DNA of 63,927 nucleotides, the filler included, from Stramenopiles sp. TOSAG23-6 (lineage: Eukaryota): NCBI GenBank assembly GCA_900128565.1. It is 10 parts of 10 records of this genome, joined end to end, with 100 filler letters (N's around TTAATTAATTAA, not from the genome) between each part and the next. Parts side by side here need not be neighbours in the genome. Positions count along the whole stretch, not along the records: positions 34,047 to 45,251 come from LT636276.1; 9 more parts are not named here. The stretch is one strand, 5' to 3'. The translations under genes were made by a program, and so were the position numbers. Within the stretch, counting starts at the first letter, position 1; every line of letters begins with the position of its first letter. Under the pieces are notes generated by a model. It worked only from the letters and a program-made list of their open reading frames with translations. It was not told where the DNA came from and did no database searches. Shown piece by piece: positions 633 to 63,875 of this stretch.

Positions 633-3171
633 TTAGAAAGCACCCTTAGCGCTTGCAACATTACTTGTAGACTCACACATCAGCTTCTTTACAACTTCAT
701 TGAATGCATTCCTTTCTATACGTTGTCGTCGGGTTGTAAGTTCATTAAGTTGTATATCAAATGCATGGATAGCTTTCTTAATTTCTTCATTCATTTTATC
801 CTCCGCTTCTTTCAGAAGTGTATTGAATCTAGTTCTTTCTTCCAATACATCAGAGCGAAGATCGACACGTGCCTGTGCTAGCACACGAATTTCCCTACTG
901 TCATCATATGTTGCATGTAATGTCTTGATGATAGAATCATCATCCTTTGTGTATGCTTTATTTACATTGTGATCTTCATTGCTCTGTGTTACTGTGGATA
1001 TATGTGGTGCTTCAAAGGTGTAGCGACGTGTTGGTGATGGTAACTGATGATTGATACATTCTAAGAAGCAATTATCATCCTCAAACGTGTTCAGCTCTTT
1101 TTTTGTTTCATTAAATAAAAATGATTTTGCATTCAAACAATTTACGCCACTAGCATCATCCTTCATTACCACTGTGGAACTATTCACCAATGGGACAATC
1201 GTGCTGATATTTCCTTCATTATTTGGCTGTTTCTCAAAACTTTTAGAACTTTGAATAGCGGTACTAAATGTATTGGCACTTTCAGAAGTTTGACGTTCAG
1301 TATCACTTTCATTAAAAACATTCAAAGGTTTTTTGACAGCTTTTTCATGTACATTCTCATTTGTTGAAATATTTTTCTTTTGTGATTGCGTCGCTCGTTT
1401 TTCGCACCATTTATCGAAAAGCTTATCTGCTGTTTCCACAGCGTTTCCTTCTGGTGTACTACAGCCAAGATTCAGTTTTCTTATATTTTGATTGATTAAT
1501 TTAGGCGCTTTCAATATTTTTCTTACTTTTGACGATTGTGGAGCCTTTGCATTGATCGAAATAACCGATGTTGATTTTCGAACTTTACTTGAGAATGCCT
1601 TCCAGCTTTTTACACTACTGATTGCCCGAGGGTGTGGTGGTGGTGGTGTTTGTGGTGCTACATTTACGTTTAATAAATATATNAAATTTGAAGAAAAAGT
1701 TAGGTACAAAATTGTGTTCAAAAACAATCAAAATTCATGATGAAAAAAACGCACCCTCAAGCACTTATTCGTTTTCTTTTTGACCTTTTTTGCAATATTT
1801 TTCTTTTGTTTTTCAAGCACGAGATCTTTTTTCTGAGATGTTGCATTTACACAATTCGTTGTAAGAATGGTATACCAAATATGAGAGCCACGTGGCATTT
1901 TTTCTTTTTGGAAACAAACTGCTTCACGATACAGCATCTCATATGCTTCGGGAGTGATTTTTGTAAAAGGTGCAGTAATTTTTCTATATTTATAATTCCC
2001 ATCTTTTCCAGAAATTCCTTTTACTTTAGTCAGATTTTGAACTCTTTGGGATTCCGTTTTTCGTGTCTTTTCCATTGATGCTAACAATGGTTTCAAAATT
2101 TTGGCTAGTCCTTTTATTCGCTTCTTTTTTGATACATTCGTTTTTATTGCGTCTAAATTACCCAATCTGTATCCGGTCAATTTGTCAATTTGAACTTTAA
2201 GTTGAATGCCATCTTTTGTTGCGTCTCTACAATCAATTGGCAGTGATACGAAATTACGAAGTAGTGAAATCCATGTATTTTTGAAAAATATTTCAAAAAA
2301 AAAATCGTTAGGTACAAAATTTCGTATAAACAAATAAATTCGAATTTGAAAAAAAATAAAACATACATTTATCCGGTTCACCATTTGCTTTGCCTAAACA
2401 CTCATGCGTACTACAAATTGTCTTTTTTTTACTTGTACTTTCGGCAATAGGCTTATGTGATTCTTCCTTAGGTGTAGGGTTTTTAGGGTTTGAGTCCAAA
2501 GTCTCAGAATTAGGGTTAGGGTTTGAGTCCAAAGTCTCAGAATTATTTGTAGAACTAATGGTTACATTACTTGGCGTTTTGCCCAATACATCAAAAGTAC
2601 TAACATGAGCGCCCATAAGGGACTCTGTATTTTCTATTTTTCCTTGCGTCACATTCTGGAGTATTTTATCCGAATCGAGTTCAGCCATAACGGCCCGTAA
2701 TTCTTCGATCTCCATGGAAGATACTAAACTGTTACGACGTTTTCTTTTCTTTTTCTTCTTTTTCTTTTGATTTTTCTGACTAAGCTTTTCGAGTTTCCCC
2801 CCTACATTAAGTAGCTTTCTATTCAATTCATCATTTGAGTGAAAATGATCTTGTTGGCGATTAATGATGGAATTATTAGAAGAAAGCGGTGCTCGAAGTT
2901 CACCACTTTCTTTCAAAGCCGCGGTATTGGTATTCCACACAGTATCATTTTCATCGTTAATATTTCTCTTATGTTGAGGATCACGCTGTCCATGTTGTTT
3001 CGAATTCTTCGAAGTTTCATCTGCAACGTCGAGTTGAAAGAAACTAGGAGGATCCGGAATAGAATCAATATCAAGTGGACTAGCATCAGTTGTTGTAACA
3101 TCTCCAATAGAGCTCTCTATAGACATATCAACACTCATGTCCATACTTACATCACTGATCGAGGATGTCAT
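633..3171 (-). CDS. hypothetical coiled-coil/low-complexity protein, 3 exons (3171-2367, 2272-1755, 1661-633)
   Basis: Three consecutive minus-strand ORFs join in frame (EPDK-W-ISLL; KCLR-VAPQ) after removing two GT-AT elements. Confidence 0.75.
1662..1754 (-). mobile_element. GT-AT introner-like intron (93 nt)
   Basis: AGG|GTGCGTTTT...TTTTGTACCTAAC...GTAAAT|GTA; removal joins two ORFs in frame. Confidence 0.7.
2273..2366 (-). mobile_element. GT-AT introner-like intron (94 nt)
   Basis: AAAT|GTATGTTTT...TACGAAATTTTGTACCTAAC...AAAATACAT|GG; frame restored. Confidence 0.85.
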
Positions 3172-6400: not shown

Positions 6401-7347
6401 AGTTGTGGTGTTGAGATCGTTAGACTTCGCAAAGCTTTTAGATTAAAAGAAGAAGAAAATAAAAAGCTCACAACTCAAATAAATCATCGGGAGGACGAAG
6501 ATGATGATATAGTAAATACACTCATTGAAGATATTAACAATAATGGTAATAGTAGTAACACCAATAGCTTCGAGAAGAAAATTTCGGTATGCAATCTCCA
6601 CCCAGAAAATGCAATCCATTACGCCCGAGTAATTGCTCGGAAATACGATGGGAGTCAAAAAATGAATCTTGATCTCACTCGTCGATTGCACATGATGCAA
6701 AAAGGATTATTAAAAACGAAAGGCGTGAAAGGTCGTTTAATTGAACTTGAAGGTGCACAATCAGAAGCGCAACATTGTATTCAGAGATTACAACATGATA
6801 ATAGCAAAGTGAAAATTCTTCGAAATACTGTGTACGTTTTCATCACATTTCAATGTTGAATTTATTTTTTTATACGAAATTCTGTACCTAACAAAAAAAT
6901 CAAATTTTTGAAAATATTTTGTCACGATACATGAGGACTCAAGAGAAAGTGATCAGTAAATTACAAAAAATTATAGAGAAACGAATTAAAAATACCGCAA
7001 TGATCCATCCACCAACTGTCCCTGACGATAACGAGTCACCAAGTGAATTATCAAAGAATTGGTCAAACGCACTGAAAAAGATAGACTCAAAAGTAATGGA
7101 GCAAGGAGCTGATGATGTTGATGGTGTTTCAGGCAATATAGTTAATCCTAGTGGTAATGCGTCTATAGAAGTGGAACACTTAAATGCACAGTTAAAGGCA
7201 AAAGATGATCGTATTAGTGTTTTGGAAGATCAAATGACTAAAACAGCCGAGGAAGCAGCAGAAGAATTAGCCGAGCTAAAACTTCAAATTATGGAGCTGC
7301 AAATGGGCGGAGGAGGAAGCAGCTCTTCCGACGATGAAAGCTTTTGA
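3464..7347 (+). CDS. C2-domain and coiled-coil protein, CCDC33-like; exons 3464-6831, 6933-7347
   Basis: N-terminal C2-like regions; C-terminal LIDKLMKEVERRADAIRSCGVEIVRLR and RNTVRTQEKVISKL coiled-coil segments resemble CCDC33; joined across one GT-AT intron. Confidence 0.65.
4430..4730 (+). repeat. coding tandem repeats (DKTNEAKSDEVKQ-type units, then 15-bp EDEKK units)
   Basis: Repeated GAAGATGAGAAAAAA and GAAGCAAAATCAGAT units visible directly. Confidence 0.85.
6832..6932 (+). mobile_element. GT-AT introner-like intron (101 nt)
   Basis: ACTGT|GTACGTTTT...TACGAAATTCTGTACCTAAC...CACGATACAT|GAGG; gives T-V-R-T-Q-E-K. Confidence 0.85.
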
Positions 7348-14685: not shown

Positions 14686-14986
14686 GACGGCAAAATGGAG
14701 CCTACAGTGAGCACAAGACAGTACAATGTTTAGATTAAATAAATATTGAGCACCTAAGCTCGAATTTTGCGTGCTGACTTGAAATTTTGACACGTGGCAC
14801 TTGAAATTTGAATGCTTGAAATCTTTGTCGAAATCTTCGAAAATATAATTTTAAACGTTGAACGACCGAACGACTACTCCCATTCATCTTCAATTCTGAG
14901 ATCTCCCAATGAGATAGCATCTTGATTGATTGGCATACTAAAGAAATTATCTAGCAGTCTATTCAATAATAATAGATGATATAACA

Positions 14987-16663: not shown

Positions 16664-16753
16664 GTATGTTTTATTTTTTTTTTAAACAAAAAAATCGATT
16701 TTTTTCGTACGAAAAAAATCGATTTTTTTGTTTAAAAAAAAAATAAAACATAC

Positions 16754-18430: not shown

Positions 18431-18731
18431 TGTTATATCATCTATTATTATTGAATAGACTGCTAGATAATTTCTTTAGTATGCCAATCAATCAAGATGC
18501 TATCTCATTGGGAGATCTCAGAATTGAAGATGAATGGGAGTAGTCGTTCGGTCGTTCAACGTTTAAAATTATATTTTCGAAGATTTCGACAAAGATTTCA
18601 AGCATTCAAATTTCAAGTGCCACGTGTCAAAATTTCAAGTCAGCACGCAAAATTCGAGCTTAGGTGCTCAATATTTATTTAATCTAAACATTGTACTGTC
18701 TTGTGCTCACTGTAGGCTCCATTTTGCCGTC

Positions 18732-21668: not shown

Positions 21669-21723
21669 ATAAATCGATTCGTTTATTAAAAATACAGTCA
21701 ATCCTAATGCTTATGATTTAGTT

Positions 21724-22566
21724 CTATCGAGATACTCCACCTCCTCTACCCCTGCCTCTACCTCTGCCCCTACCTCTACCTCTACCTCTGCCTCTGCCTC
21801 TGCCTCTGCCCATTTGTATTTGAGTAGTATTGGCACCATTTATAATAGCACGCTCTGCCGCTTCGAGTTCGTCCTTGACATCCTGTAATTCTTTAGCCTT
21901 TTGCTTTGCTTGTTCATTTGCAAGTTTTTTTTGCTCCTTTGCAAGTTTCTTGGCATCTTTAGCTTTCTGTTTCGCTAATTGTTTAGCTTGTTTTGCTGCT
22001 TTTTTCTCTTGTTTCTTCTCTTGTCTCGTTTTCTTTCGATGTATCTTCTTCTCAACTCCTTTCAATTCGCTCTCAGCAAAATGAAGCAGCGCTTCCTCGG
22101 CGTCTTTGAATCGTCCATGATTCTGGTTTGATATTTCGCGTTTGTAGCGCCTTTGGCGCTCTAATTTGTGCACTAAAGCTATATTAGCAGCAACTTTTCG
22201 AGCCCTGTTACCTCGCGCATGCCTTTGAATCATCGTGACAGCTTTCATGCGAATCCATTTTCTACGTCGCTCTGCTTTCTCCGATTTCTTTCTATTCTGT
22301 TTCTCTGCAATCCTGTTTTCTCTATCCATCTTCTTCTGAAACTTTTTTTGACGTTTTGCTTTCATATCTTCTGGTCTAGATCCTTTCAATGGTTTTAGAA
22401 TAACAGGAGGTCTCTCTGGGCGAACTAAATCTAAGGATGGTCGACTTGGACTTTTTGCCCCCATTTGCAGCACATAATCAGTGAATTTGTCAATCTCATC
22501 TTGATTTGCAGAAATGGACTCTTCAGCAGCCGTTATTTGGTCATTTAATTCTATTACTAGCTTTCC
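21724..22566 (-). CDS. IQ-motif coiled-coil protein with C-terminal RG repeat (5' partial)
   Basis: AVTMIQRHARGNRAR IQ motif and (GR)n tail; frame open upstream to 22566. Confidence 0.65.
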   Translation of the reverse strand, partial: GKLVIELNDQITAAEESISANQDEIDKFTDYVLQMGAKSPSRPSLDLVRPERPPVILKPLKGSRPEDMKAKRQKKFQKKMDRENRIAEKQNRKKSEKAERRRKWIRMKAVTMIQRHARGNRARKVAANIALVHKLERQRRYKREISNQNHGRFKDAEEALLHFAESELKGVEKKIHRKKTRQEKKQEKKAAKQAKQLAKQKAKDAKKLAKEQKKLANEQAKQKAKELQDVKDELEAAERAIINGANTTQIQMGRGRGRGRGRGRGRGRGRGRGRGGGVSR

Positions 22567-22786: not shown

Positions 22787-23994
22787 ATAAAAGAATAATA
22801 GACTTTTTTGGAATCAAAAAATTCGATGTCACACCTTTTGCTACAAAAGATTATATGAAAAAAAAAGGAAAATGCCGGAAATCACGTTTAAACTTTCAAT
22901 TGCATGTATGTTGTATTTGTTTTGAATTTCGAATTTGTTTTTTTTTTGGTTCGAAATTTCGTACCTAATGAGTTTTTTTTTTAAATATTTTTTCACAATA
23001 AATACACCATCACAAAATTTTGACACACGCATCGAAGAATTAGCTTCCATAGCTTCTGCTATGCAAATTAAAGGCATGAAATATTGCGGCAAATTGTCGT
23101 ATGCAAATGAGGTTGCTCGAAATTGTAATATCGCTAGTCTCGAAAACATCCAAAAATTATCAAGCGTAAATTTGACTACTGTCGATATTTTTGATAAAAT
23201 GCTTACTGAAGGTTTGTTTCCGCCCATTAAAGTTCAGTATCATTCACAGTATGGATTCGTCATGTAGGTTTTTTTTCGTACGAAATTTTGTACCTAACAT
23301 TTTTTTTTCATTCTACATTTTTATCATGAATTTCAATTTTTATTTTTAGTATTTCATCTTATCAAATGTAAAACATATTACCCCAAAATACATGGTCTCT
23401 AATGGTAAAATTAAGGATAGGACTTTAATATGTGAGTATATTGGTAGTGTAGAATTTCTTGAGGAAACTGTACGTTTTCATTATGAATTTTAAATTTATT
23501 CAGTTTTTTTTTCGTACGAAATTTTGTACCTAACAAATTTTACCAAAAAACAAATTTCACAATATATGACCACACAGACAGCGATTCTCTAATGGAACTT
23601 CTTCATAGTGGTCATACGGATACTTCGTTAATTGTCACGCCAAACAAAATAGGAAATTATGCGAGATTCATCCAGGGGATCAATAATAGTGATGTAAATT
23701 CGGTCAGACGTCAAAACGTTCGATCTGGCCGTTTTTGTATCAATGTACGTTGATAAATTTCACTATTTGTTTTTGTTTTTTTGTTTAGGTACGGAATTTC
23801 GTACAAAAAAAAAACAGGAAAAAAAATCATATGATTTTGTACCTAATACAAAAAAGATTTTTTTCTATTTTTTCACAAGATATGGCGAAAGTCGTGTATT
23901 TTTGTTTGCTGTACGAACAATAAAAAAAGGGGAGCTATTGTACTACGACTATAATGCTCATAGTAATAAATATCCTACTGAACACTTTACATAA
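22787..23994 (+). CDS. ATXR5/ATXR6-like SET-domain histone methyltransferase (5' partial); exons 22787-22905, 23004-23263, 23394-23469, 23568-23744, 23884-23994
   Basis: Spliced product has PIP-like KRIIDFF, TPSQNFDTRIEELASIASAM, GFVMVSNGKIKDRTLICEYIG, GNYARFIQGINN, INGESRVFLFA...GELLYYDYN...YPTEHF, collinear with plant ATXR5/6 as I recall them. Confidence 0.88.
22906..23003 (+). mobile_element. GT-AT intron (98 nt)
   Basis: CAT|GTATGT...TTCGTACCTAAT...CACAATAAAT|ACA. Confidence 0.85.
23264..23393 (+). mobile_element. GT-AT intron (130 nt)
   Basis: GTCAT|GTAGGT...TTCGTACGAAATTTTGTACCTAAC...AAAATACAT|GGTC; gives an ungapped SET-domain segment. Confidence 0.88.
23470..23567 (+). mobile_element. 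GT-AT intron (98 nt)
   Basis: ACT|GTACGT...TTCGTACGAAATTTTGTACCTAAC...CACAATATAT|GAC. Confidence 0.88.
23745..23883 (+). mobile_element. GT-AT intron (139 nt) containing an inverted core copy
   Basis: AAT|GTACGT...CACAAGATAT|GGC restores IN-GESRV; the AG 4 nt upstream would frameshift. Confidence 0.9.
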
Positions 23995-33200: not shown

Positions 33201-33946
33201 AGTTAAAAGGGCCACCATGAATGAAAACATGATAACGGCATTTGTCACACCTCTTTTGTTTTGTAGTAAATGCTTGAAAATTTCCGATTGGATCCATGAA
33301 AGTAAATGGCTTTCTATTTTTAGATTGTAGATTTCCAGCAATTACATTAACGTCCTTTGTAATATTACGACTATTTTTTGATTCTTGTTCTTTTGCTAAT
33401 ATTTTAGATGAAAGAACGGATGTAGCAGCGTTTAAGTGCATTTGTGAAAGATGAGATTTCTTACTTCTAAATCGAAAATTGGCTGCAGTTGAATTAAACT
33501 TCACGAGCTTATCTTCTCTTCTTTGTAATGCTGGAACTATACAATGAATAGTATCTAAAATTAAAGTACTGTTTCTACAAACTTCATCGCCAACCATGAC
33601 TTTTAATAATTCGCCTCTTGTGCCAAGAAATTTACCTTTAATAGAAACTTCGGTGTTGATAATATCTATGCCGTGATTTGGAGATACGTTTAAAATTTCG
33701 GGTTGTTTATATTCATAGAAAATTGTTGATAGACTCTGACGAAGTATTTTATGACTTGCTACAAATACAGGATGTTTACCTAATCTACCAAAATTATTCG
33801 TTGGAATGTTACATTCTATATGATTGTCATCAATTGTAATTGGATCAGTACAGACCCTATCACCAATATAAACTTTAGAGTATACATGTGTACTATTTGT
33901 AGCTCCAAAATACTTTCCAACCACAGTCAATTTTGCTGGAGGGGTT
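27283..33946 (-). CDS. giant IPT/TIG-repeat protein (5' partial, >2200 aa)
   Basis: Many P.I..V.P...I.I.G.NFG...V.IG...C......I.C..P units. Confidence 0.85.
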
Positions 33947-34503
33947 NNNNNNNNNNNNNNNNNNNNNNNNNNNNNNNNNNNNNNNNNNNNTTAATTAATT
34001 AANNNNNNNNNNNNNNNNNNNNNNNNNNNNNNNNNNNNNNNNNNNNTTAGATCATCTAGCCCAAATTCCTGGAGATTTGTGAGGTTTTCGATCCATATAT
34101 TCAATGTATCACGTACTATATGCTTATATAAATATCATGACTTTTCATTTCTCATTTAGTATACAAATCATTATATGGTTTAACAAGGAGAGCGAAAGTA
34201 CTACCTATTGTGTGTTTGTGGGGATTAATTACTATAGTACTACGATATAAAAATATAAAAATATGGATATTTCAACTGACGTCGTCAGTTACATTTTTTG
34301 GAGCGATGTTTTGCAATTTCTCAGATTATATGGAAAATTCAAAATTGAATAATACGTTACGGTTGGTGGTCAAATTTGCTATCACAACTTCAATATTATT
34401 CAATTGTGTCATACTTTTGTGTGGATAACAAATAATAGCCACAAAAAAAACTTATCATTCATCTGTGTTTCCTTTTCACTACCCTTTTTGTATTCATTGT
34501 ATA

Positions 34504-35131: not shown

Positions 35132-35448
35132 TTTTAAAAAATGATAATGGTTTCAAATTCAGAGAAACTTTAGGGTAAAAAACAAAAAAAAAAAAAATGA
35201 ACAAATTGAAATTATCCTTTTTTGCTTTTTTCTTGATTTTTTGTTAGGTACAAAATTTGGTATGAATTTTGTTTTCATTACCTATCAAAACGATTCTGTA
35301 ATAAAGTTATTGTAATAATTTATCTGAAACTACTTTTTTTATATTTTTATCTTTTTTGAAGTTTTCATCTGTGCTAGATTTTTTTTTCTCAATTTCAAAA
35401 ATTTTTTTTCGCACGAAATTTTGTACCTAACAAAAAAAACTCAAGAAA

Positions 35449-36251: not shown

Positions 36252-38157
36252 ATGAGACTTATGCTCCCATCTCTCATTCGTTATGGTAAACACCATAGAA
36301 TATCAGAGCTTAGACGGTATTTTTATGCAGAGAGTACATCCAGTTTTGCTAATTATGGACTCCATGACTCACTCGTTACAGCTCTATCTAAAGCTGGATT
36401 TTCTCGCCCTACGCAAATACAGGCTCTTACATGTGATAAATTAAGATGTGCAACACGACAGAATTACAAACATACAGATCTACATTCAGTCGAACACAGT
36501 AAACCATTTGCAAAAGTTGTAGCTGCTGAAACAGGTAGTGGAAAGACTCTCGCTTACTTGGCGCCATTAGTATCCGATTTACTTGACTCTCCAGGCAAAC
36601 GTTCTTTAATTCTCTGTCCTAATCAAATGTTATGTGAACAAGTTGCTCAAATAGCATCAAATATGCCTGTACAAGTGGCTATTTTGACTGCTCACTCGGC
36701 TCCTTTGGCTGATAGAGGACTCCCAGATCCAAATGTACTCATTTCTACACCAAGTAGTTTCTTACGACATGTTGAAGCGTATATGGATAAAGGCAGACAA
36801 GCGAATTTTGTGAATAATTTACAGCAAGTTGTATTCGATGAGGCTGATCTGCTTCTTACGGGTGGATATGACGATTCAATTCGTGAAATCTTTTCTTTTT
36901 TTGTATACAAACAACTTCAAAAACATGGATTTCGTGGTGTTCATTCCCTTCATAACAAACATTTGGGCAAATATATGCGAAAATTAGTATGGAAAATTGG
37001 TGATAATAAGCTAAACGATGATATGAAGAAGGAGTTATATGTAAAACATTCAACAAATTTAACAAATTCAACAAATTCAACAAATTTAACAAATAATAAT
37101 AATGAAAAAAATGATTTTTCTTCTTCGACAGTTTTGGAAAATGAACCATTACAGTTTGTTTTTGTTGCTGCTACTTTACCAACCAAAGCTGAAAAATCCG
37201 CTGGTAATCATATTTATACTGCTTTTGGTAAAAATAGTGAATGGATTGGATCACCTGGTCTTCATCGAGGTGCTCCTAATGCGACATTTGAGTGGGTGAC
37301 TTTACATGTATGTTTTCATCATTCATATCAAATTTCAAATTTATATATTTTTTTTTTTTTTTGTACCTAACAATTTTTTTTATTGTAAAACATAATGTTT
37401 CACAATTCATACAAAAGGCCCAGATTCATATGATGAATCTAGTGGTTTATTTATTGGTGATGAACAGTGTGAGGAACAAAAAAAAGAAAATATTGAAATG
37501 AAATATCGGGCAGTTATTGAGACTTTACACAATCAATATGATGAAAGAATTAAAAAATACGAAAATATTGAAAATATGGATAAAACAACACTTTTATTTT
37601 GTAATACAATTAAATCAGCAGATGCATTAACAAAAGTATTAAATGAAGCGAATTTCGCAGCGTTTTCATATCATAAAAAAATTCCATCTCTTGAACGAAC
37701 TCAATTATTAAAACGAGTATCTAGAAAAAATTCAATAGATTTAAAAAGTAATTCTCAGAATTCTCTAAAAGATGATGAAATGAATCATTCAATTGATATA
37801 TCTACAAATACAAAAAATACAAAAAATACAAAAAATACAAAAAACAAAAACTTTGAAAATGATCATATTTATATTGTCAGTACAGGAATTGCAGCACGTG
37901 GTTTAGATATACCTAATTTAGAAAATGTTTTACAAGTTGATTTTGCTGAATCAGCAGTTCAATTTCTTCATAGATCCGGTCGGACAGCACGAGCAGGACA
38001 GCGAGGTATAGTGACGTCATTTTATACAAAAGGAACATCAGAAGAATTTCTTGTCAATGCAGTAAAAACTGCATTGGATTCAGGTGAAGCACTTGAAGAT
38101 TGTTTCAGTCGTCGACGTTCTTTTCGAAAAAATCTAAAAAAGTCCAAAAATTGTTAG
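36252..38157 (+). CDS. DEAD-box RNA helicase (organellar type); exons 36252-37307, 37411-38157
   Basis: Q motif, AETGSGKT, DEAD, AAT, ARGLD and HRSGRTAR motifs; the halves join in frame across GT-AT intron 37308-37410. Confidence 0.9.
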
Positions 38158-38711
38158 GTACAAAATTTTTATAAAAAAATAAATTAGAATTTGAAAGACA
38201 ATTTAAATTTTGAAATATATTTTTTTAAAAATAAAAAAAATCAAAGAAATAAAGTAACTTATCGAAAAGAATTTCAAACTTGAAGATATTTTTTCATACG
38301 AAATTTTGTATCGAATCAAAAATCAAAAAAAAATCAAAGAAATAAAAAAGTTGCAGCTATAAAAAGTTTAAAAACTTTTTTGACACGAAATTCATTCAAG
38401 ACCTTAAAACAAACTCTGAAGAATTTTCTCTCAAAAATTGTATAATGGAGCACTACTTCAACAATGTCAACACGGGTGTGTGAGAAGAAGAAGAGTATAA
38501 AAAAATAGTCGTAGGAAGTCTCTGACTTTTTGCGCTTTTTGCGGTCATCAAATGACGGTTATAAAAAAAAAAAAAAAAAATTTGAAAAAATCCGTCAATC
38601 CGGTGATAAACGACGGTTAAAATCTTGAGTGAGAATCGGACGATTCTTTCTTGTTTGCGACATCTTCTTACTCATTTCAATCATTGTATTGTTTTATATT
38701 GTTCATAAAAA

Positions 38712-41700
38712 ATGAAAACTTCAATTGTTTTTGCGTTTTTTGCCGTCACAGCACAGCTACATTCAGCATATTCAATGAACCAAAGTGCATCCCAGTATCA
38801 ACCTGATCAAGCTCTTCCTTTCATAAAGGGAAAGATAAAAAGCCTAAAAGAGAAAATAAAAGAGCTATTTGAACAACAACCTGTGAAACTATTTGAACAA
38901 CCTGCGAAATTCGATGTAGGACTCGTCAACGAAGTTGTAAAAATGGCACAATTGTGGAAAAAATGGGATATCACTCATGATGACTTGAAAGCATATAATG
39001 TGAGACCAGCCGGTAGAAGGATAAAAATGATCGAGTTATTACATGAGTTATATAAACAAGTGCAAACAGAAACGATATTGGAGGCAGAGCAAAAGAGAGA
39101 ACTTGATATAGAAGCAGAGAAAAAGAGAGAACTTAATATAGAAGCAGAGCAAAAGAGAGAACTTGATATAGAAGCAGAGCAAAAGAGAGAACTTGATATA
39201 GAAGCAGAGCAAAAGAGAAAACAAATGAAAGGACTACAATTACTTTGTAGATTAACAGAAGATGATTTGAATGATCAAACATATTGCTCTCGTGGTAAAT
39301 CGTATAACTACCTACCATGTGGAAAATATGTATGCAATGCTGAAGGAGATGTGATAGAGTTTCACAAATATTCTTACCATGTACGAAACTTCAAACCTAG
39401 ATTCCTCGTATATCTATCACAACTCACACATCTCTCGATGCCAAACAGAGTGAAAGGATTTCTTCCAGGTTCTATTGGCACTCTTCAAAATCTTACACAT
39501 CTCGATATCTCAAATAATCGCCTAAATTATGTACCTAAATTCATTACGAATCGTCAAAACCTTGAAGAATTAAATTTGTCTAACAATAAGCTTACAGAGT
39601 TACCACAGTCTATGCGTCAACTCCAAAAACTACGTGAATTAAATTTGTTCAACAATAAGCTTACAGAGTTACCACAGTCTATGCGTCAACTCCAACAATG
39701 TATGTTTTATTTTTTTTTTACAAAAAAATCGTTTTTTTTTTCGTACGAAATTTTGTACCTAACGAATTTTTTAGATTTTTTTTTGAAATATTTTTCCAAA
39801 ATACATTACGTGTGTTAAACATTCATGACAATCCAATTCTACGAGATCCAAAAGTCATTGGTCATCTGAAAAATTTGGTAACACTAAGAATGGATTCTCA
39901 AATGAAAGGTAAACGATTCATGAAGCGACATAGACGAAACATCCCAAAAGAAGAATTATGGGAAAATTTTATGCCTGATTGTACGTTTTAAATGTTTTTT
40001 TTCATAGTAAATTTTGTACCTAACAAACATTTAAAATGTTTTTGTAAAATATATTTTTTTTTTTTTTGTATATATGTTATTGAAATTGAATGTTTTAATA
40101 ATTTGTTTTTACTATGAAACTTTCATAAATACCAAAATACCTAACTTTTTACTATAAAACTTAGATAAATCGGCCAACTAACAAATAATTTTTAAACCAA
40201 AAATCTTTTTTTTTTTACAATATATGGATCGAAAACCTCACAAATCTCCAGGAATTTGGGCTAGATGATCTAAAATATGGACCACATCATATACACTCTC
40301 TTTATTTGAAATCACTCAAAAAAGACAAGAAAACGTTATTAACTCACTTGAAGGGTCGTTTTCCAACAGAAATTAATGATTTTGAAAGTGTTGTGCATGA
40401 AGTAAAGGATGTAATTGCTTGTGATGGTAAAGTCATTTTGAATGGAACTACTTTGCCTGGAGCACTCTTTCTTGCTGCGTATAAAAAAAAAAAAAACAAA
40501 TCCTATTTGTATGAATATCCAGTAACATTACATGTAACCAAAAGAGAAGTAGAGAGCAAAGTAGAGGAAAAAACAGATACAAAGACAAGAAAGAAAAGTG
40601 CATTGATAATTACAACTAGCGCTAGTGCTGATGACAATAAAGCATTTTCAAGCTTTGAAATTGATCCTCGTCATATTATTGGTCAACACGATAGATCATC
40701 CGCAAACATAGAAGGGCTCAAAAAGGGCAAAGAAAATTTTTGCAATAAAATGGAATGTCTTACAAGAGAACATAATGTCAAAATTGTTGTAGCATTAACA
40801 ATTGAACAAATTACTGAAGAGGTCAAAAATTCTGAGAATCTTGATTATTTAGAGATTCAAGGTCATGGTAATTCACAAAGTATTCAATTGAGTCCTCAGT
40901 TACAATTACATGCGAATGGAGGTTTCGTTAGACATTTACAATATATTAAAGCAGAAGATACACTATTCTGGTCTGAAATTCCAAAAGCTTTAAGTACATA
41001 TGGTACGTTTTTAATTAACGCTTGCTCTACAGGGGCAGATACCAGGCAAAGTAATTCGGAAGAAATAGGGATGTGGGGGAAATCTTTGTATCAACAATTA
41101 ATCACATTTGAAGATGTAATACACAAGAAATACACAAATGATGTTGCCACCAGAATTCGTCGAATGTTACCCGCTATAAAACTGTTCTACTTTATTGAAG
41201 ATTCTAACAGTGCAATAGTTGTGGAAAACCCAAAGACGAATCAACGTTGTTTACCAGGACAGGGTGATCGCGATGCGGACAAAGCTGGATATCAAGGATC
41301 AAAAAAAATAGGCTTCTCTGGCCATGTTCAAATCCCACTTTGTTCCAATACTGATAAGAAAAATATGTATTGTTTCTTACCCAAGTGCTTTGATGCAATT
41401 GATGTGAGTCAAACCAAAGGTAAATTTCAAGGAGTTCATCTTATAGTCAATCAAGAAATTCAAAATTTGTGTCATTCTTTTAGATATAGTACTGAAGATG
41501 ATGAAAAACGTAATGATACAAATGCAGCTATGAAAGGCGATCAATTTTTAACCCATCCTCTTGGAGCCTGCAAACCAAGAAGAGCAGTTGATCAAGCACA
41601 AAGACTTATTGAACTACGTAGGAATAACCAAATACCAAGCCCAGAATCTTTTAGTATACTTCGATATTTCTCTCGGCTTTCCCAAAACGAACCATCCCGT

Positions 41701-41949
41701 TCAAACAAAAATATTTTTCATTCTGTCATCAAGTGTATAAAAGAGAGATTAAACGATGTGAAAACGTTCGAAACATGTTTACAAAGCCTATACTATTTAA
41801 GAAACATACAAATGACAGCTACAATGTATCGTCCTATATGTTTGATCAATGACAGAGCAGCAGCTACGATTGCAACAAACGTAAAAAAATTATATAGAGC
41901 TAGAAAGAAACGCATTGTTCAACCAATACATACAAATGCATTCCCTTGA
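38712..41949 (+). CDS. secreted LRR protein fused to a putative His-Cys peptidase-like domain; exons 38712-39699, 39807-39980, 40226-41949
   Basis: Signal peptide, 30-bp AEQKRELDIE repeats, LRRs; splicing gives LQQ-LRVLNI and FMPD-W-IENLTNLQEF (LRR register); IQGHGN...INACSTG downstream. Confidence 0.75.
39700..39806 (+). mobile_element. GT-AT intron (107 nt)
   Basis: CAAT|GTATGT...TCGTACGAAATTTTGTACCTAAC...AAAATACAT|TACGT; register confirmed by the preceding near-identical LRR unit. Confidence 0.9.
39981..40225 (+). mobile_element. GT-AT intron (245 nt, expanded)
   Basis: GATT|GTACGT...TTTTACAATATAT|GGATC; fuses the LRR ORF to the 40306 ORF. Confidence 0.75.
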
Positions 41950-45511: not shown

Positions 45512-45611
45512 ATGTATTTTGGAAAAATATTTCAAAAAAAAAGACCTAAAATTTGTTAGGTACAAAATTTCGTACGAAAAAAAATTCGAATTTGAAAAAA
45601 ATAAAACATAC

Positions 45612-47972
45612 ATCTGACCGTAGAAAAACTCGCCAGATAAATCGACCAAATAATCCAACAAGTGATACGATGACAAATGCTGGAAAAGTTGCCATAAGCT
45701 GTGCTGTAAAGTGATTTTCTCTTAATAATTCATCAATTGCAGACATTGCTGTTAAAAGTTCTTTCTTGATGAATTGTACTTGAATGAGCGCCAGACGTAC
45801 CATGTCTCCAGTTACTAGATTTTTCACTGGTTCCTTTACTTCTTCATCGTAAACAGCACTAAGCGCAGACATATCCATTTTTGCGGTTGCTATTGCTATT
45901 TCAGCATCTGTTAAATTATGATGATCGCCTTTAGTATCAATTAGAAAATCTCCTATCATTTTTTGTAATGATAATTTTGAATCTTCCATTGCTTCTACAT
46001 CACTTATAACTATCATTTCATTAAATACAATATCAGCAAACATTTCACTTGCAGGCTCAGTGACATGGAGATACCACCATCGTTTCACACTATTTATACT
46101 TCGTTTCATGGCTTGAAGAGCTTTTCCTCGATAAAAGGCAACAGAACATATGATCCCTATACCTAAAAGACCTACCATTGCAATCTCAGGTGTTTTACAG
46201 ATCCAATATTTTGGAATACTTACCTTTTTATACACCAAAAAACTTTGTAACTCTCCAAATGCACTGTTTACATTCATTTCATCACTTGTAGGTAATATTT
46301 CTTCACAACGGTGCATTTCTTCTCCTTGTGCCATGGCTAAAGTCCTTCCAATTTGTAGTTGCAAAGTACTGGAACGAATCACTTCTCGCCATCCTGAATC
46401 GTCACCTACCCCATTTTCTCTCGCCCAAGACCAAGCCCAGCTTCTATCAATTTCATTATTTGCTCGAGTTTTACTGACACTAAACCATGGGGGAAGCTTT
46501 TTATCCCAGTAATTCACAGGAAACTTTGATATAGCAGCATCAACCAGAAGCAAACCATTCAATGCTACATCGACCAATTCTTTATGATGCACAAAATAAT
46601 CTTCAGTTTCAAGATATAGATTGATCTCATATAGCTTGATCTTCTCCGCAGTAACACCGGCAACAAGAGGAATTGTATAATGTTCAAGCTGCTGAATTTG
46701 AAGTTGAATACTTCCTAAAACAGGAAGAATTTGTTCTTTCATATTTGATAAAAGTTGTAACTTCAACTGAAAAGAAGAGCGAAGATCACATGTATTGTAA
46801 AAAAAATTAAATTCAAAAATTTGTTAGGTACAAAATTTCGTACGAAAAAAAAATAAATTTGAAATTCATAATGAAAACGTACCTACCATATCTCGCATAC
46901 TTCGAGATGTTTGACGTAAAAGAAGAGACAATTGTGAGAGAGAATAGAATGAATTTTCTTCTTCGTAGATGTTGTCGTGGTTGGAATTATGTTGTAAATT
47001 CTTCATTTTATCTGGGTAAGTCTCATAAAAATATAAAGAGAAGCCACGTATTATCAACTCACTATCATTCAAAAGCAATAAACGACACCAATACTCTTGA
47101 CATTCTTCAAATTCTCGTAAAATGATATATAAATGTTCTCTAATTATTTGTAGTTGTAACATTGTAGAACTTGTGAGTAAATCAAGCTCTGTAATTTTTT
47201 GGGATGGATCACGCCATTTTGTTGCTAAACCCGCATCGCCTCCAGAGAGTGCGACATCTGCGTCTGCTTTAACCAAATCAAATAGTTTTTCACTAAGATT
47301 ACAGAGACTTTGACTTAATTCAGGTATACGTATTCTGGACGAGAGACCAGAAACTTTCTTGTATCTTTTCTGCGCTATTCTCTTTTTCTCTGAGGTCGGT
47401 AAAAAAGAGGCAGTAGAATTGGAATTTGATTGTCGGCGACTTAGAGATGGTGTTGCCCATCCATCTGGAAGTTTTCGTCCTTTTGGTGATACAGGTGATT
47501 TGCTTTGGTCTTTTGAATTGCTCTTCTTGTTCATAGATTTACGTTTATTTAACAGTGGCGATGAAATGTCTTTTGTATTTGGAGACAAATTTGGGGACGC
47601 ATTTGAAGCAGATATCATAGAATCACGCTTACTAGCAAGACGTTTTCGTTTTTGTTGAGCAATTTCTGCTGCATGAGTTTGAGAATAGTATTTATATAAA
47701 GCTGACATTGCCCACGCAGAAGCTAAAGTGACACCAGCGCGAAAAACCCACTTTAAAGCTGCTGGGGGATCAGATAAATCAAATCCCAACCAATGAGCAA
47801 CAGCATTAGGAGTTTCAAAATATGCCTTTCGCCAATATCGATTTTTATTATTTGTTTGAGGTGGAATCGAAGTTTCGACACCGGGAGGTTTTCTAATAGA
47901 CGTAATAGACTTTAGAGCCTTTTTCATGTCTGTGGCCAAGTCAGATGCGAATTCCTTTGCCTTTGACGCCAT
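45612..47972 (-). CDS. NCA2: NCA2/DGS1-family mitochondrial membrane protein (3' end uncertain); exons 47972-46883, 46789-45612
   Basis: YDEEVKEPVKNLVTGDMVRLALIQVQ...MSAIDELLREN...ATFPA motif; GT-AT intron 46790-46882. Confidence 0.8.
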
Positions 47973-50468: not shown

Positions 50469-53359
50469 ATGTTTAGCTGGACTCATCAAGGTGGTGACTC
50501 TGTCCCAGTATTTACTCCAAAGGGGAAAAACCCAACCGAAAATTGGGACCTGTCTGGTAATGTTGTTAAAGTGTATGACCGAGTCGCTCGTGGGTATACA
50601 TACGAGTGTAGCGGTGGCCCTTCCACATCAATGCGTCTACCCGCAGATTTGCGTTCGTCTCTTGGTTTGACGCAGTCCTTTTTAACTTTACAAATACTCG
50701 TTCCATCGACTACCCCATTTTCAATGGACATTGAAGTACAAGCAGAAGCTACACAGGAGACTCAAGCAAAACTTCAAAGTCCAGAAAAAATGGTATCTAC
50801 AATCAAGCGCCGCCCAGTTCATTTGAAATTCTCAACTGCATTCAAAGATTCTAATTTTAATGGACTCCACGCTCAAATACCTCTTTCAAAGATACCTCGT
50901 AATAGATGGCTAAACTTGTGTTTAGATCTGCCTGACTTAGTTTCAAGTTGTTTTTTACACAGTCCCAATTTTATCTCTTGTGCAGCAATTACAATTGGTG
51001 CAACATGTCGACTTCGACGAATATTTACTATGCGAGATCCTCCTAGTGTTGCACATCAAACCTTGTGGTTATCTGACAAAGAAAATATGCAGTCTTTGGA
51101 TGAAAGAAACCCTAACCCTAACTCTACACAAGATTTTTCTGAAACATATACAAATATTGGATATATTCCAAGGCGTTATCAATTTTCACCCGATGCGAAT
51201 TCGTCTACTATTATTATGAATTCAAAGGTATTACAAAAGTCTTTCACGTCAAAAGATACAAAATTAAAAAAAAGAAACCAAAAGAGTCCAAAAAATCCTA
51301 CCCCTACAAACCCTAACCCTACAAACCCTAACCCTTCGCAAAAATCCAATGGAACAAAATTAAAAGGTGTAACTATATCTGCACTTCGTGGACTTGAAGC
51401 TGCTCGGAAGCGGCGAGATTCCCTCTCAAAAAAAAAACGAAACTCTGCTGGGCTTGGCACAAAATTTCCAGGTTTTGGTTCAGTGCCCATTCGGAAACCG
51501 AGACGAAACCCTAACCCTAAAGCAAAAAGGAGTTTACATAAAAAATTTTCAAATGTAAAAAAAAAGACTGTTCCTACAAATTCTACAAATCGTACAAGAA
51601 AACTCAAAACATCAGCAATTGAAAAAAATGAAAAAAATGAAAAAAATGAAAATTTGAAGTTTGAAGGACGAAAAAAAAAATTGAAAGAAATGAATGAAAA
51701 TTTGAAGTTTGATACAAAATTTAGTACAAAATTTGGTACTCTGTCGCCTCACGTAGAATGGAGGAATAGAATGCCAACAAAAGAGTCAAACGATTTTGAA
51801 TTTTCTACAGCTGACAATTCTTCAGAAAAGTCACAAATTCGAAATTCAATAGAATTTAAGACAAATCCTCAAGATTCAATTTCGAATTTATCTCTTAGTA
51901 CTCCAAATATGACTACTACTCAATCTACTCCTACTGCAAGACCACCTTTAACAATATCATCAAATAAATTTGGTGTGTTTGAAATTGGTAGTCCTGAATA
52001 TTCAGAAATGTTGATGAAACAGGGTTATAAACCTATTATAACTCCAGTGTTGGGTTCTTCCCTCTGTATGTTTTCATTTTTTTTTTTTTACCATTTGTTT
52101 TTCGTACGAAATTTCGTACCTAACGTTTTTTTTCAATTTTTTTTTTTCACAATACATATTCAAAATATACGAAATCACCCAAGAAGGGTACAAATGATAA
52201 AAAACTACATCATTCTCCATTATTAACTTTAGACGATTTAACAAATCCAAATTTCATTGACCAAAATGAAAATATGGATAATGGTAATGTTGATGAAGGA
52301 AAGCCAAAGTTAAGCCCTAAATATAATTATTCAAAAAATTCAAGTTATTACGAAAAAAGGATGAAAGTTCTAGAAGAAAAAAAAAGAGAATTACTTGATT
52401 TAGAAAAAAAATTAGAAATGCAAAAAACGAAAATAGGTGATAATTTGATGAATGTAGATATAAAATCAGATTTCCATAATGATAAAAACAAATCAAATAA
52501 ACACAATAAAATAAATGAAACAAATGAAAGTATTTCAGAACAAGACATTTTACATGATGTTTTTGCCAACATAAGTATTAAAAATAGCAAATATGATATT
52601 AGAAATTACATGAACAAAAATATAAAGTCAGAAAAATATGAAAAAAGTGGAAAAAGTGGAAAAGATGAAGATACAAAAATGTCCCGAAACCTAATCAGAA
52701 AAGAACCCTCGAAAGAAAATCATAACCCTAATAACACTAATAATCTTAATAGTACTCAAAATCTAATCCAACCTATGAAAAAAATACAAGAGCAAACTGT
52801 ACATCAAAAAGTCCATGAGGATGACATAAAGCAAAAACCACAGAAAACTTTTGTACATTCCTCAAGTGAAACAAAGGTAGAAACGAAAGGATCAAACATC
52901 GTTAAGGAACAAAACTGCTTTCATCAAAAGCCTTCGACTCATCGAACATTTGAAGAAAAACTTAGAGAATTACATGAGAGAACTTGTACAAGACTTGCAA
53001 ATACATCTAGATTACAAACTATGCATCCAAACACTATAAGAATTCAACATCGGTTACTGCAAAATAAGGAACTGAGTAGTACTGGCAGTGACTCTCAGCA
53101 CATTCAAAATTCATTACGATTTGGTACAAATTTAATTTCGAATTTGTCAAGTCCTGCCCCTTTGCCTAATAGTGTAGCTCTTATTAAACATTCTAACCCT
53201 AACCCTAATCTCATTCCTAACTATAATAAAAGACATATTCTTGGAAAAGACAATCAAATGACCACAAATAGAACAGAACTGGCTGAGTTGATGTTTGATC
53301 CATTACTTAATTGTTATTTTAATCCTGTTACAAATCAATTTTTCAAATTAAAAAAATAA
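50469..53359 (+). CDS. CFAP20DC: CFAP20-domain-containing protein (C3orf67-like); exons 50469-52065, 52158-53359
   Basis: N-terminal CFAP20/DUF667-like domain (SLGLTQSFLTLQ, WLNLCLDL, CRLRRIFTM) and C-terminal LMFDPLLNCYFNPVTNQFF; GT-AT intron 52066-52157. Confidence 0.8.
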
Positions 53360-55368: not shown

Positions 55369-56415
55369 CTAAATAACAAAATTTATGATTTTGTCCGCCG
55401 ACCAATGTACTTGTTTAATATAATATTTAATCAGAGATTGGGCGCCTGAAGAAACAAATAATAGAAAAGGAAACGGAGTTACAACGCGAACGATCGGGAT
55501 CTCGCACGAAGAATCAAAATGGGGAAAGAGGAAGTTGATTATCGTAAACGTTTATTAGGGTTGGGGAAAGAAAAAGTTGTTTATCGTAAACGTTTCTTTT
55601 AAACTTGTCACGTACCAGTCGTCTGTAACAAAGCTAATACATGTAATGAACGCTCAAGAAATACTTTAACACGTGTTCTTGCATCCATATCTAAATAAAC
55701 AGAATGCTTTCCATTATTTTCCACTCTTGAATCACAAACTTGAAATCCATTAGGTACAAAATTTGTATGAATAGGATTTTCTATACGTGTTCTAGATGCT
55801 AAAGCGATAAGAACATCTCCTTGATGGGTCGGATAAAAGACAACATATTGTGAAAAAATATTTTTGTTTTTTTGGTTGAAAAAAAAAAATCATTTAGGTA
55901 CGAAATTGCAAAAAAAAAAATGAACTTTGAAAATTTGTTAGGTATAGAATTTTTTTTTTACTAAAAAAAAAAAAAAATGATTTTTTTTTTTGAAAACCTA
56001 CACAAAAGGTAATTGTATGGAAGGAAATATTTTTGGTGAATATAAACACTCAATAAATGAAACTAAAAGTTTTTTTGTTTTAACCGCATCTTCTGATGTT
56101 ACAAAATCATCTCTGTGCCGTGTACTATGATATACTGTGAAAAAAAAATTGTTTTTGTAAAATTTGTTAGGTACGAAATTTCGTACGAAAAAAAAATCGA
56201 AATTCAAAATTGAAAAAAAAATAAAACATACATATATATTTTCCAACATGGAGCAAACATCTTCAGCCCAATACAAAATTTTCCGAAACAGAGCCGCTTT
56301 GAGATTCATTTCAGATGGATTTTGTGTTTTCTTTTTCTTTGAGGCAGCAACAAGAACAGGACCAAGAATAGATGGAACTATTTGTGTGTCTGAGGTTTGA
56401 AGAAAAGCCAATAAC
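55369..56415 (-). CDS. hypothetical protein (5' partial); exons 56415-56232, 56129-56002, 55842-55616, probably 55445-55369
   Basis: Frames join across element introns 56130-56231 and 55843-56001 and a likely canonical GT-AG intron 55446-55615. Confidence 0.5.
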
Positions 56416-61135: not shown

Positions 61136-62385
61136 TTAATCTACAACAAAAGAGAATTAATAAAGAACAATGGCAAAACTCACATACATTACTTCAAAAA
61201 GCCTCTATAGGAACATTGGCAAAAGTTCATCATATTTGCAGTACAATAGCCAGCATAATTCAACTAGATATACAACGTGAAATTCGATATTTACAAAGAG
61301 TAAAATCTAAAAGAAATAAAGAAATTCCGTCATTGGGTCATTGTGACATTGATAATAACTATAAAAGTATCGATACATTGAATGATTCAATACAGTTAAT
61401 CCATAATCAAGGAATGAAATATGTACAACTGATATCTAAGAAAATAAGTAAAGAAACTTCGAAAAGTCACCGAGGCAATATCTTAAAAAAAACTAAATCT
61501 CGTGCTGATTTGCTATTAGAACGCCGAAGTCCATTAAAAGTTAGAAAAAGAAGAAAAAAAAAACGACCAAGAAAAGATTTAAATGATTGTAAAACGGATC
61601 AAAAACGACCAAGAAAAGATTTAAATGATTGCAAGGATGACTCAGGCATTGACCTTTTCAAACGTCGCAAAACAAGAAAGGAAGAAATATCCAACAATGA
61701 TCAAAGTAAGAATAAAAATAAGAAAGAATCTTATTATGATGAAAATATTGAAAATGATGTGAAATTTGGATCACTTGGAGAAAATTCATCTGATAAAAGA
61801 ACATGTCCGTTTCAATGATAAATTTCAAATATTTTTTTTTTCGTACGAAATTCTGTACCTAACAAATTTATGTTTTTTTTTTCTAAAATATTTTTTCACA
61901 ATACATCAAACTCATCGAACTGTAAAGAATTTTCACCAACGAATGCTAGAATAGAAGAAATACAAAAAATACATCAATCTAATGTAACTAAAAGTGCTAT
62001 AAACACCCAAACACTTGCAATAAGTACAAGTACACTGTCATCTAGTAATCCTAACCCTAGGATAAATGTTATAGGAAATCAAATGAGCTCAATTATTCTT
62101 GAACCAAATGAAAACTCTACACTATCCAGTGATGTACAGAGTAAAAGACTCGATACCAAAACAAATGTATCGAATGATTATGTAAAAAATGGTACGAATC
62201 CTTCACTCCGTACATCACAAACAGAATCTGAAACCCAATCTAAAAATAACCCTAACCCTAACATGAAAAATACTACTGAAAAAGATCTTTTACGGTCTTG
62301 TATTCGAACCGAATTGAAACGTTTGTTACCTAAGCGTATCACTCTTGATTATGATTACTTTGAGCGTATATTTTGTGTAGCTCAT
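61136..62385 (+). CDS. hypothetical low-complexity protein (partial); exons 61136-61804, 61907-62385
   Basis: Frames join across GT-AT intron 61805-61906; flanked by elements at both contig ends. Confidence 0.65.
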
Positions 62386-62599: not shown

Positions 62600-63875
62600 A
62601 ATCGACAGTTTGAAAGAAAGATTCCTGGAGAAGGTAGTTCTTTAGCGAATGCTGTGAAGCAATGTACTGTACGTTTTCATCATTCATCATTCAAATTTCA
62701 AATTTATATTTTTTGTAGTACATTTTGTACCTGACGATTTTGTTTTTTTGGTCAAAAAAAAAAAAATATTTTTATACAATATCTGAAGCTGCCCGTTCAA
62801 TATTTTTTGCAGAACTCACCCAAGTTGGTCAAAATGTCTTAGCTCAAAAACCACCATCCAGTCTTGGAGTTTCTACTGGCCTTTCTCATGTATTGGCTAA
62901 TCTTTCAGCTGTTTTAAAGGTGCATGTATGTTTTATTTTTTTTTTTAACAAAAAAATCGAAATGTTTTTCGTACGAAATGTTGTACCTAACGATTTTTCT
63001 TGAAATATTTTTCCAAAATACATTCTCGTTCACTTGTATTTGCTACAACTAATGATCGTATAGAGAGTTTCACAGATACACTAAGTGCTTTTGTAGAACC
63101 TTTGTTGCAATTGTATATTTTATTTTTTTTCAATTTCGAATGTATTGTTTTTTTTCATACGAAATTTCGTACCTAACAAATTTTACAAAAACAAAATATT
63201 TTTTTACAATATATGTGTCGAATGGGAAAGAAAAGTTTACAACCAACAGATTCTGCAATATATGCTATTAATAATATTTTAGCAATACAGAATGCTCTTG
63301 TACCTTATGATTTCACATCATTTTGGGTACAGAAATTAGCAGAAGAGGCGTCATCGTATGTCGACATTGTGGTTGATGAAGAATCAAGAAGTGTTTTAGA
63401 GAAATGTTCGTTTTCATCATTCATTTCAAATTATTTTTTCATACGAAATTTTGTACCTAAACAAAAAACAAAAAAGATTTTTTTTGTGACATCTTCGTTT
63501 TTTCATCATTCATTTCAAATTTCAAATTTCAAAATTATTTTTTTGTACCTTACTCCAAAGATTCCTTCTATGATTTCAAATAATATCATTTTTTTTGTTT
63601 GACGTTTAATAGACTAACAAAACAATCGATTGTGACATATTTTTTCAAAAACATGTGATATTTTCGAAAAATTACAATGTATTGAGTCTAAGGATAGAGA
63701 TATTCCACTGAGTACACTCCCTAGAATGAGTGCAAGTAATGTAAAAGATGCTGTACAAAAACTGTATTCTGCATTCATACAAAATTCACTACCTGAGTTT
63801 GATGGTATATTGAGTCCAAGGCTTCGTGGAATGGTACGAACCGGCTGTCAGGATGCTCTTGCAAGGGCTCATCAT
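62600..63875 (+). CDS. COG6: conserved oligomeric Golgi complex subunit 6, C-terminal part; exons 62600-62668, 62785-62925, 63024-63112, 63215-63405, 63655-63875
   Basis: Spliced: PPSSLGVS...VLKVHSRSLV...FTDTLSAFVEPLLQLCR...AIYAINNILAIQNALVPYDFT...LPEFDGILSPRLR; six element introns. Confidence 0.75.

Follow-up and report, generated by a model that had tools for sequence, protein, structure and literature searches.

In the assembly of Stramenopiles sp. TOSAG23-6 (GCA_900128565.1), a 63,927-nt stretch of DNA (hereafter the window) carries a palindromic 24-mer, TTCGTACGAAATTTTGTACCTAAC, at positions 39740-39763 (+), inside a short intron of a gene for a probable secreted leucine-rich-repeat (LRR) protein. 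What does such a sequence do in an intron that ends in AT? The initial annotation took it for the most conserved part of a set of introns, a palindromic core fused to the branch point that might form a hairpin, bind a dedicated factor or pair with a variant U2-like small nuclear RNA (snRNA), and so position the 3′ end without AG. Our analysis suggests, with a probability of roughly 0.7, that the motif serves as branch box in a family of introner-like, AG-independent introns whose 3′ ends come from a 2-bp duplication and whose donors would be served by an adapted U1. The same estimate covers the family itself, a probable miniature inverted-repeat transposable element or introner-like element that would be the main source of introns in the DNA sampled from this marine protist.

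The motif is abundant. With up to 3 mismatches, the 24-mer matched the window 24 times and 100 shuffles not once, and the branch-like word TACCTAAC occurred 25 times in the window against a shuffle mean of 1.04. The 21.1-Mb assembly contains 2,564 exact matches of the 24-mer (1310 + 1254), which is not a copy number because the assembly holds duplicated contigs; the reversed pattern gave 0. A 663-kb sample held 266 distinct matches of the branch block compared with 2 in reversed sequence. Whole elements were then sought by their two ends in approximately 987 kb of sampled DNA, i.e. the window plus other loci (numbered with an L below), with overlaps removed by flank. This search returned 192 elements against 9 in a reversed control, and 178 of them carry the branch block. 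Core-bearing copies had served to train the end matrices, hence detection depends in part on the core; the search also demanded G as the first base, so that other starts are uncounted. The 14 candidates with ends only were excluded from the conservation counts; 5 of them contain CTAAC, and some resemble false calls.

Elements have a median length of 99 nt (range 82-134). Their general start is GTAYGTTT, with GTATGT in 96 and GTACGT in 52 of the 178 block-bearing copies, and they end in AT (135), TT (12), AG (10), GT (8) or other dinucleotides (13). A possible terminal inverted repeat consists of just GTAT/ATAC, 4 bp in the predicted fold. Outside the core, the median identity to the nearest neighbour is 0.87. 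We compared the last bases of the upstream exon with those of the element using the locus-specific test for target-site duplication set out in a previous report (10.1101/2022.06.06.494994). Identity exceeded all 5000 shuffles at positions -1 and -2, as in a duplication of the target site, and did not at -3 to -5 (n = 158). The two dinucleotides are equal in 134 of 178 copies, including 24 of the 43 with non-AT ends.

Several observations show that these elements are introns, as the initial annotation had proposed. Of 158 copies in an initial sample, 153 had the sense orientation and interrupted reading frames that their removal restores. For the 178 copies the called end was uniquely the best by frame in 132 cases, tied in 32 and worse than a 1-nt shift in 14. 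All three insertion phases are used (53, 43 and 36 copies). Removal rejoins conserved protein motifs (/ marks the junction): ILADE/MGLGKT in a CHD protein, AAAYH/AGL in RecQ and GPQGIVH/GTT in urocanase. In the LRR gene of the window, excision of 39700-39806 rejoins the repeat frame (QLQQ/LRVLNI), whereas use of the sole AG past the branch (39773-39774) as acceptor results in a frameshift and a stop; with the second intron (39981-40225) also removed, a single 961-aa open frame is obtained. As a side observation, the genes with the strongest codon bias have no element (EF2, L100; RPL21/RPL28, L007; RPS9, L053; HSP60, L099). Element density across codon-bias classes is 0.51, 0.32, 0.17, 0.29 and 0.16 per kb, a non-monotonic series confounded with AT content.

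Direct evidence for removal was obtained from seawater metatranscriptomes. The EF2 locus is partly present in 20 runs from 8 studies, and the assembled contigs of 4 runs (2 studies) were compared with 6.1 kb holding 10 element junctions. An X5 contig (252 nt, 0 mismatches) skips a 99-nt GT..AT copy; its joint has a slide of 3, so four registers fit, none of them with an AG end. A 97-nt GT..AG copy is skipped both by this contig and by one from X2; the joint cannot slide, and the short sides have 22 and 28 letters. In X3, a 93-nt GT..AT copy is missing from a contig with 104 and 36 letters on its sides, and a loose end of 15 letters in X4 equals the exon beyond a 95-nt GT..AT copy. Three copies are thus skipped exactly, two of them without AG. 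At the remaining 6 junctions, bridging contigs and informative loose ends were missing, or the sole signal was a departure at the donor (9909); uncovered parts count neither for nor against removal. Eight of ten listed joints were set aside, six that join intron copies together and two from contigs with foreign letters. The claim that splicing can do without AG was therefore borne out, by RNA joints as well as by the scarcity of AG ends (10 of 178 copies). The splice register is GT...NN: both informative junctions of FTHFS need it, and the residues concerned, L and P, are each present in 85 of 87 homologs. An AT-AC register was also considered and rejected, since the shift breaks conserved residues, is excluded at the RNA joints and would require RTATCCTT donors where GTAYGT is found.

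Next, we asked which part of the core is conserved. Per-position values in the 178 copies are 99/89% for TT, 71/62/86/88/71/67% for CGTACG, 93-96% for AAATTT, 77% T or 22% C at the Y position and 95/99/99/98/97/99/99/100/93% for GTACCTAAC. CTAAC is found in most copies and TACCTAAC, as predicted, in 150. Conservation of the core as a whole thus held for its 3′ half but not for CGTACG (62-88%), and the donor block is about equal to the 3′ half in conservation (GT 100/97%, +5 to +9 93-100%, in donors selected by score). TTCGTACGAA is unbroken in 79 copies and the 16-mer palindrome in 64. Among the other palindromes named initially, AAATATTT is a family feature (129 of 178), but AAATTCGAATTT and AAAATCGATTTT occur in only 3 and 2 copies. 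The deletion form GTACTAAC belongs to one element among 6 pattern matches. When pairs of copies, which are not independent, were binned by their divergence outside the core, identity of GTACCTAAC fell only from 0.97 to 0.93 and that of CGTACG from 0.72 to 0.39. A cruder age proxy agrees, with 0.016-0.044 versus 0.17-0.40 mismatches per site. The refuting check named in the initial annotation thus splits: (Y)GTACCTAAC is under constraint, and the 5′ palindrome arm is free of it. What is constrained is an extended branch box on one side rather than a palindrome. Separately, the commonest variants (core positions 2-3, 6-7 and 14; donor +4) are CG to CA/TG changes; the CpG observed/expected ratio of the genome is 0.91.

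These data bear on two explanations that give the palindrome itself a role. In the first, a hairpin GUACGA-AAUU-UUGUAC directly 5′ of CUAAC would be required, either presenting the branch site or binding a dedicated factor. A 28-mer is predicted to fold in this way, the fold persists in the full intron, and the common C/T variant retains a G-C or G.U pair; a stem-loop 5′ of the branch is also said to enhance BBP binding in yeast. At least 5 of 6 pairs can form in 121 of 178 copies, and all 6 in 81. However, 57 copies have 4 or fewer, two-sided changes account for 4 of 1068 cells, and the two sides of the G/Y pair are not associated (Fisher p 0.18). Moreover, of 47 copies whose 5′ arm is broken, 34 have a perfect GTACCTAAC, and the folding energy of the 28-mer (z -1.5) was equalled in 20 of 200 shuffles. 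Since the 5′ arm decays with divergence in the absence of compensatory change, a required hairpin is unsupported, and we regard it as quite improbable. In the second explanation, the palindrome and its spaced A/T tracts are DNA signals of the element, e.g. a site for a dimeric transposase or another protein, which the branch site later overlapped. In its founder form the 16-bp palindrome is indeed perfect and lies close to the element's middle, its 5′ arm decays like disused sequence, core-like boxes exist outside full elements, and the spacing modes of the GTATGTTTTA subfamily lie about 10 nt apart. Yet the constraint is one-sided and confined to the sense strand, which fits RNA recognition, and the two spacing modes may equally be two subfamilies. 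Viral contigs held 0 core matches; no transposase search was made. Such signals are compatible with the branch-box reading as an origin, and the 16-bp palindrome was probably inherited from the founder, but as a present function they seem unlikely.

The branch box does not appear to measure the position of the 3′ end. Most distances from the presumed branch A to the intron end fall between 32 and 50 nt, peaking at 33-36 and 41-45 nt (44 nt from A 39762 in intron 39700-39806), and they are uncorrelated with the 5′ distance; such a bimodal spread is not what a fixed ruler would give, and this part of the initial proposal is not supported. In the GTATGTTTTA subfamily we noted modes at 33-35 and 41-45 nt, approximately 10 nt apart. 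The acceptor lies two bases past a conserved TTTT(T/C)C(A/C)(A)AATAC-type box, which makes this 3′ box a candidate acceptor determinant.

Introns that lack the core served as an internal control. Read by eye, they are apparently a small minority in the sample; pattern scans for them did no better than control (85 vs 63 and 40 vs 78). HSP60 has coreless GTAAGT...AG introns, one hosting a SNORD96-like RNA, CCT6 combines a coreless intron with an element within one gene, and the coreless introns of RPS9 and eIF1A are GTATGT...CAG and GTACGT...CAG. The core is therefore a mark of the repeat family alone, and both classes have GTAYGT donors. Two coreless introns, whose ends were read from protein frames, also lack AG. 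In Rab7 (L061, minus strand, upstream of exon 5811-6296) only a 164-nt GT...CAT intron restores GDSGVGKTS free of stops, with exon 2 aligning from V19 of solved Rab7. In a cathepsin gene (L116, near 5030-5130) the candidate ends are TA, AT and AT, and both nearby AGs are out of frame. Thus, AG-independence does not need the core. As an aside, L099:6190-6289 (-) and other canonical HSP60 introns contain sequences that resemble C/D-box small nucleolar RNAs (SNORD96-like at 39.6 bits, below the cut-off), some of them duplicated.

We then examined the snRNAs. U5, U2, U1 and U4 are clustered within 650 nt on G000:C1146, and U6 is on C3740. U2 carries the standard GUAGUA, and loop 1 of U5 and the ACAGAGA box of U6 are standard as well. 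U1 (L023:349-508, in this cluster) has an Sm site and begins AAACGUACAUG, also written AAACGUACAU, which differs at three positions from the Rfam consensus start AUACUUACCUG. The changes face donor +7 (T 99%), donor +4 (T or C 98%) and exon -1 (T 89%), and each complements the family donor. The mean number of Watson-Crick pairs with the donors is 9.1 of 11 for the variant and 6.9 for the consensus, and the donor at 39700-39709 forms a 10-bp duplex of -9.6 kcal/mol. A family search for a second, textbook U1 gave the variant only (41 of 253 candidates scored); the textbook start ACTTACCTG occurs 87 times versus 148 for a control, and those 87 places were not folded. On this complementarity, the adapted snRNA is U1, matching the donor, and not U2.

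One might instead suppose pairing between the fixed YGUAC and the donor GUAYG, which would keep the 5′ splice site at four bases from the branch A. The donor-core cells form standard pairs in 857 of 890 cases, and both variable positions are compatible with G.U, but donor and core each have other grounds for being conserved, and changes in the donor have no counterpart in the core. The helix would have 5 bp and compete with U1, so we give this pairing very little credence. A second snRNA, U2-like or U12-like, might also pair with UUUUGUACCUAAC in this class, standard U2 serving the coreless introns. Both Cs and GUA are 95-99% fixed, more than pairing with standard U2 requires, coreless introns have ordinary branch-like words, and the incomplete assembly leaves room for an unseen snRNA. 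Against this, the U2 search found the standard gene only, in 2 duplicate matches (47 of 1185 candidates scored), and U12 had no match at E up to 1 in this incomplete assembly (42 of 1595 scored; U11 and U6atac were not searched). When a metagenome was scanned for U2 5′ ends that continue with GTAGGT, 6 matches came up, none of them a U2 with the needed complement: 5 are without U2 similarity and one is a degraded U2-like fragment. The variant U2-like snRNA of the initial annotation is hence very unlikely. We note that the fragment (L129:381-512, 32.9 bits), which continues GTAGGTG, stands on an unrelated metagenome contig.

Among the splicing proteins, a stretch of Prp8 aligns gap-free to human residues 1309-1700, with NAQRSGLNQIPNRRF, which we take to have a role in 3′ site contact, unchanged. 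In the region of human 1441-1452, a short stretch of Prp8 (L127), KHFRQYIQYRTD, is strongly divergent amid near-identity. A weak search with a single zinc-finger motif of U2AF1 gave no match (U2AF2 was not searched), and neither did an SF1-HH search, itself weak as its positive control was silent.

Taken together, we favour the following scheme. A donor, a branch site and a 3′ box would all come with the element, and the last two bases of the intron would be the 2-bp target duplication, mostly AT, so that removal takes place as GT...AT. The 5′ end of U1, changed to match (C/T)AU/GUAYGUUU, would define the donor by about 10 pairs. CUAAC, which fits the CURAY part of the mammalian branch consensus YNCURAY (PMC3061054), would be the branch site of standard U2, and the fixed GUAC 5′ of it would extend recognition through a second U2 register (G36-U39) or a branch-binding protein. 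With donor and branch both strong, the first step would have no need of AG, and the second would accept AU or other dinucleotides two bases after the AATAC box. A bolder version, that the spliceosome was retuned around one invader, with three U1 changes for AU/GUAYGUUU, AG dropped in old and new introns alike and GUACCUAAC read by an altered branch-binding factor or by novel two-register U2 pairing, is possible but doubtful. A dedicated protein may read GUACCUAAC.

Several points weigh against our interpretation. The position of the branch A is deduced from sequence, the U2:core duplex is weak (-2.7 kcal/mol), and C(-4) and C(-3) are both 97-98% fixed, beyond a simple bulge model. U1 scores 54.1 bits, under the Rfam cut-off of 69.5 (E 7.5e-12), and its two matches are duplicate contigs. 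The RNA evidence comes from a single 6.1-kb stretch, where 3 of 10 junctions are bridged and 1 has a loose end, at a depth of about 3-4, and the GT..AG joint has a short side below 31 letters. An insertion-free allele may give the same contig picture; as one contig is without two old copies and matches the exons exactly, splicing would be the simpler reading. Finally, because the copies are old (identity 0.87), their uniformity could partly reflect selection on signals and not copying.

The copies in the window and the parts of the host gene are listed in Table 1.

Table 1. Host gene and intron family members in the window.
Feature	Position	Strand	Remarks
Host gene, probable secreted leucine-rich-repeat protein	38712..41949	+	Pfam LRR_4/LRR_8 in exon 1; frame test
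Host gene exons	38712-39699, 39807-39980, 40226-41949	+	
Introner-like intron, 107 nt, GTATGT...ATACAT	39700..39806	+	exon end AT, intron end AT
Flagged core	39740..39763	+	5′ arm TTCGTACG 39740-39747 decays; AAATTT-Y-GTACCTAAC 39748-39763 constrained
Donor GTATGTTTTA	39700..39709	+	with exon AAT complements variant U1 5′ end AAACGUACAUG
3′ end box GAAATATTTTTCCAAAATAC + terminal AT	39785..39806	+	candidate acceptor determinant; short inverted repeat of donor (GTAT/ATAC)
Second host-gene intron, 245 nt, GTACGT...ATATAT	39981..40225	+	decayed core 40001-40024; further branch-like boxes, TACCTAAC at 40138
Family copy, DEAD-box helicase gene	37308..37410	+	T run in place of 5′ palindrome arm; TTTTGTACCTAAC intact
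Family copy, GT...AT	2273..2366	-	
Family copy, GT...AT	6832..6932	+	exon end GT
Family copy, GT...AT	23470..23567	+	exon end CT
Family copy, GT...AT	45512..45611	-	
Family copy, GT...AT	46790..46882	-	exon end AG
Family copy, GT...AT	52066..52157	+	exon end CT
Family copy, GT...AT	56130..56231	-	
Family copy, GTCCGT...AT	61805..61906	+	
Family copy, GT...CT	62669..62784	+	exon end CT (non-AT two-base repeat)
Family copy, GT...AT	62926..63023	+	
Family copy, GTATAT...AT	63113..63214	+	

In addition, core-like boxes without donor or 3′ box were seen at 35243-35266 (-), 35408-35431 (+), 38153-38176 (-), 38293-38316 (+) and 23784-23846, as well as in the RPS9 3′ untranslated region (L053); such boxes stand at gene ends or between genes and may be remnants or have another use. 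Longer introns with at least 2 cores in tandem (L045, L040, L030, L049, L076; 39981-40225 in the window) suggest nested or internally duplicated elements. The window also contains a 5.4-kb inverted duplication (about 11323-22094) with TTCGTACGAA at 16704-16713 as its pivot, and the core is found at the ends of many contigs (e.g. L043, L059, L060, L063, L065); both probably reflect an artefact of amplification or assembly at the palindrome. A 2235-aa open frame at 27283-33990 (-) has repeated modules that by eye resemble IPT/TIG domains.

How does the family compare with known introns? It shares with canonical U2-type introns the GT donor and a CURAY branch word with standard U2 and U6, but not the AG acceptor. 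Budding yeast has a GUAUGU donor and a weak AG dependence of step 1. As there, the donor is strong and the branch box fixed and far from the 3′ end. However, the near-invariant yeast box is UACUAAC (PMC3061054), whereas the branch word here is UACCUAAC, the 3′ end is not AG and the introns are repeat-derived.

Introners that contain the 5′ splice site themselves and take their 3′ end from the target-site duplication are described in reports on the Micromonas pusilla and Chrysochromulina type (PMC11282704; 10.1101/2022.06.06.494994). The family resembles these in its many similar short introns at unrelated sites and in all phases, a target-site-like repeat at the junction, a possible short terminal inverted repeat and exact restoration of the mRNA. 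It differs in that the duplicated bases are usually AT and not AG, which makes the acceptor non-canonical; in addition, its copies are old, it accounts for the bulk of the introns sampled, and U1 matches the donor.

Fritillaria borealis and F. pellucida have non-canonical U2-type introns, and 3′ AT is found in 44% and 34% of their introns (PMC13326754). Points in common are a transposon-derived majority class, triplets resembling YAY both ahead of the donor and where the intron ends, and frequent 3′ AT; the minor spliceosome is absent there, and here U12 was not found in an incomplete assembly. According to the same text, the main classes in Fritillaria are AG/AC and AG/AT, its two U1 versions have the same 5′ ends, U2AF is duplicated and U1 divergence was not the route taken (PMC13326754). 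Our family, by contrast, has GT donors, a changed U1 and a long fixed branch box. Co-evolution of U1 and donor, called rare in 10.1101/2022.06.08.495308, occurs in Entamoeba and Mastigamoeba, where the U1 5′ end is likewise fully complementary to an atypical extended donor (+7 U). The present case differs by three U1 changes, one pairing with exon -1, and by AG-less introns from one repeat family.

No description of this family was found in the literature covered, which leaves out most subscription papers. MAST is absent from the main texts of two introner surveys, and the 'mast' matches seen in one supplement are Mastigamoeba; the accessible parts of two MAST genome papers mention introns but not non-canonical ends. 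The closest match to the urocanase is an EukProt entry, GSMAST32 (90% over 89% of the query; the next reaches 62%), a label which we take to mean a MAST-3 stramenopile. Its urocanase model includes intron-derived residues and misses exon residues. For EF2, the ESM Atlas yielded no lineage.

Gene finders built on GT-AG introns mis-model the host genes, as the nearest public urocanase model illustrates, and introner surveys that rely on annotated introns would miss the family. The case parallels that of Fritillaria in another supergroup and by a different route. Thousands of introns of the major spliceosome, apparently without AG and accompanied by a compensatory U1 change visible in the sequence, would represent a natural system in which the choice of the 3′ end at the second step without AG becomes testable. 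The same holds for the question of which came first, the change in the machinery or the invasion, on which the coreless, AT-ending Rab7 intron bears.

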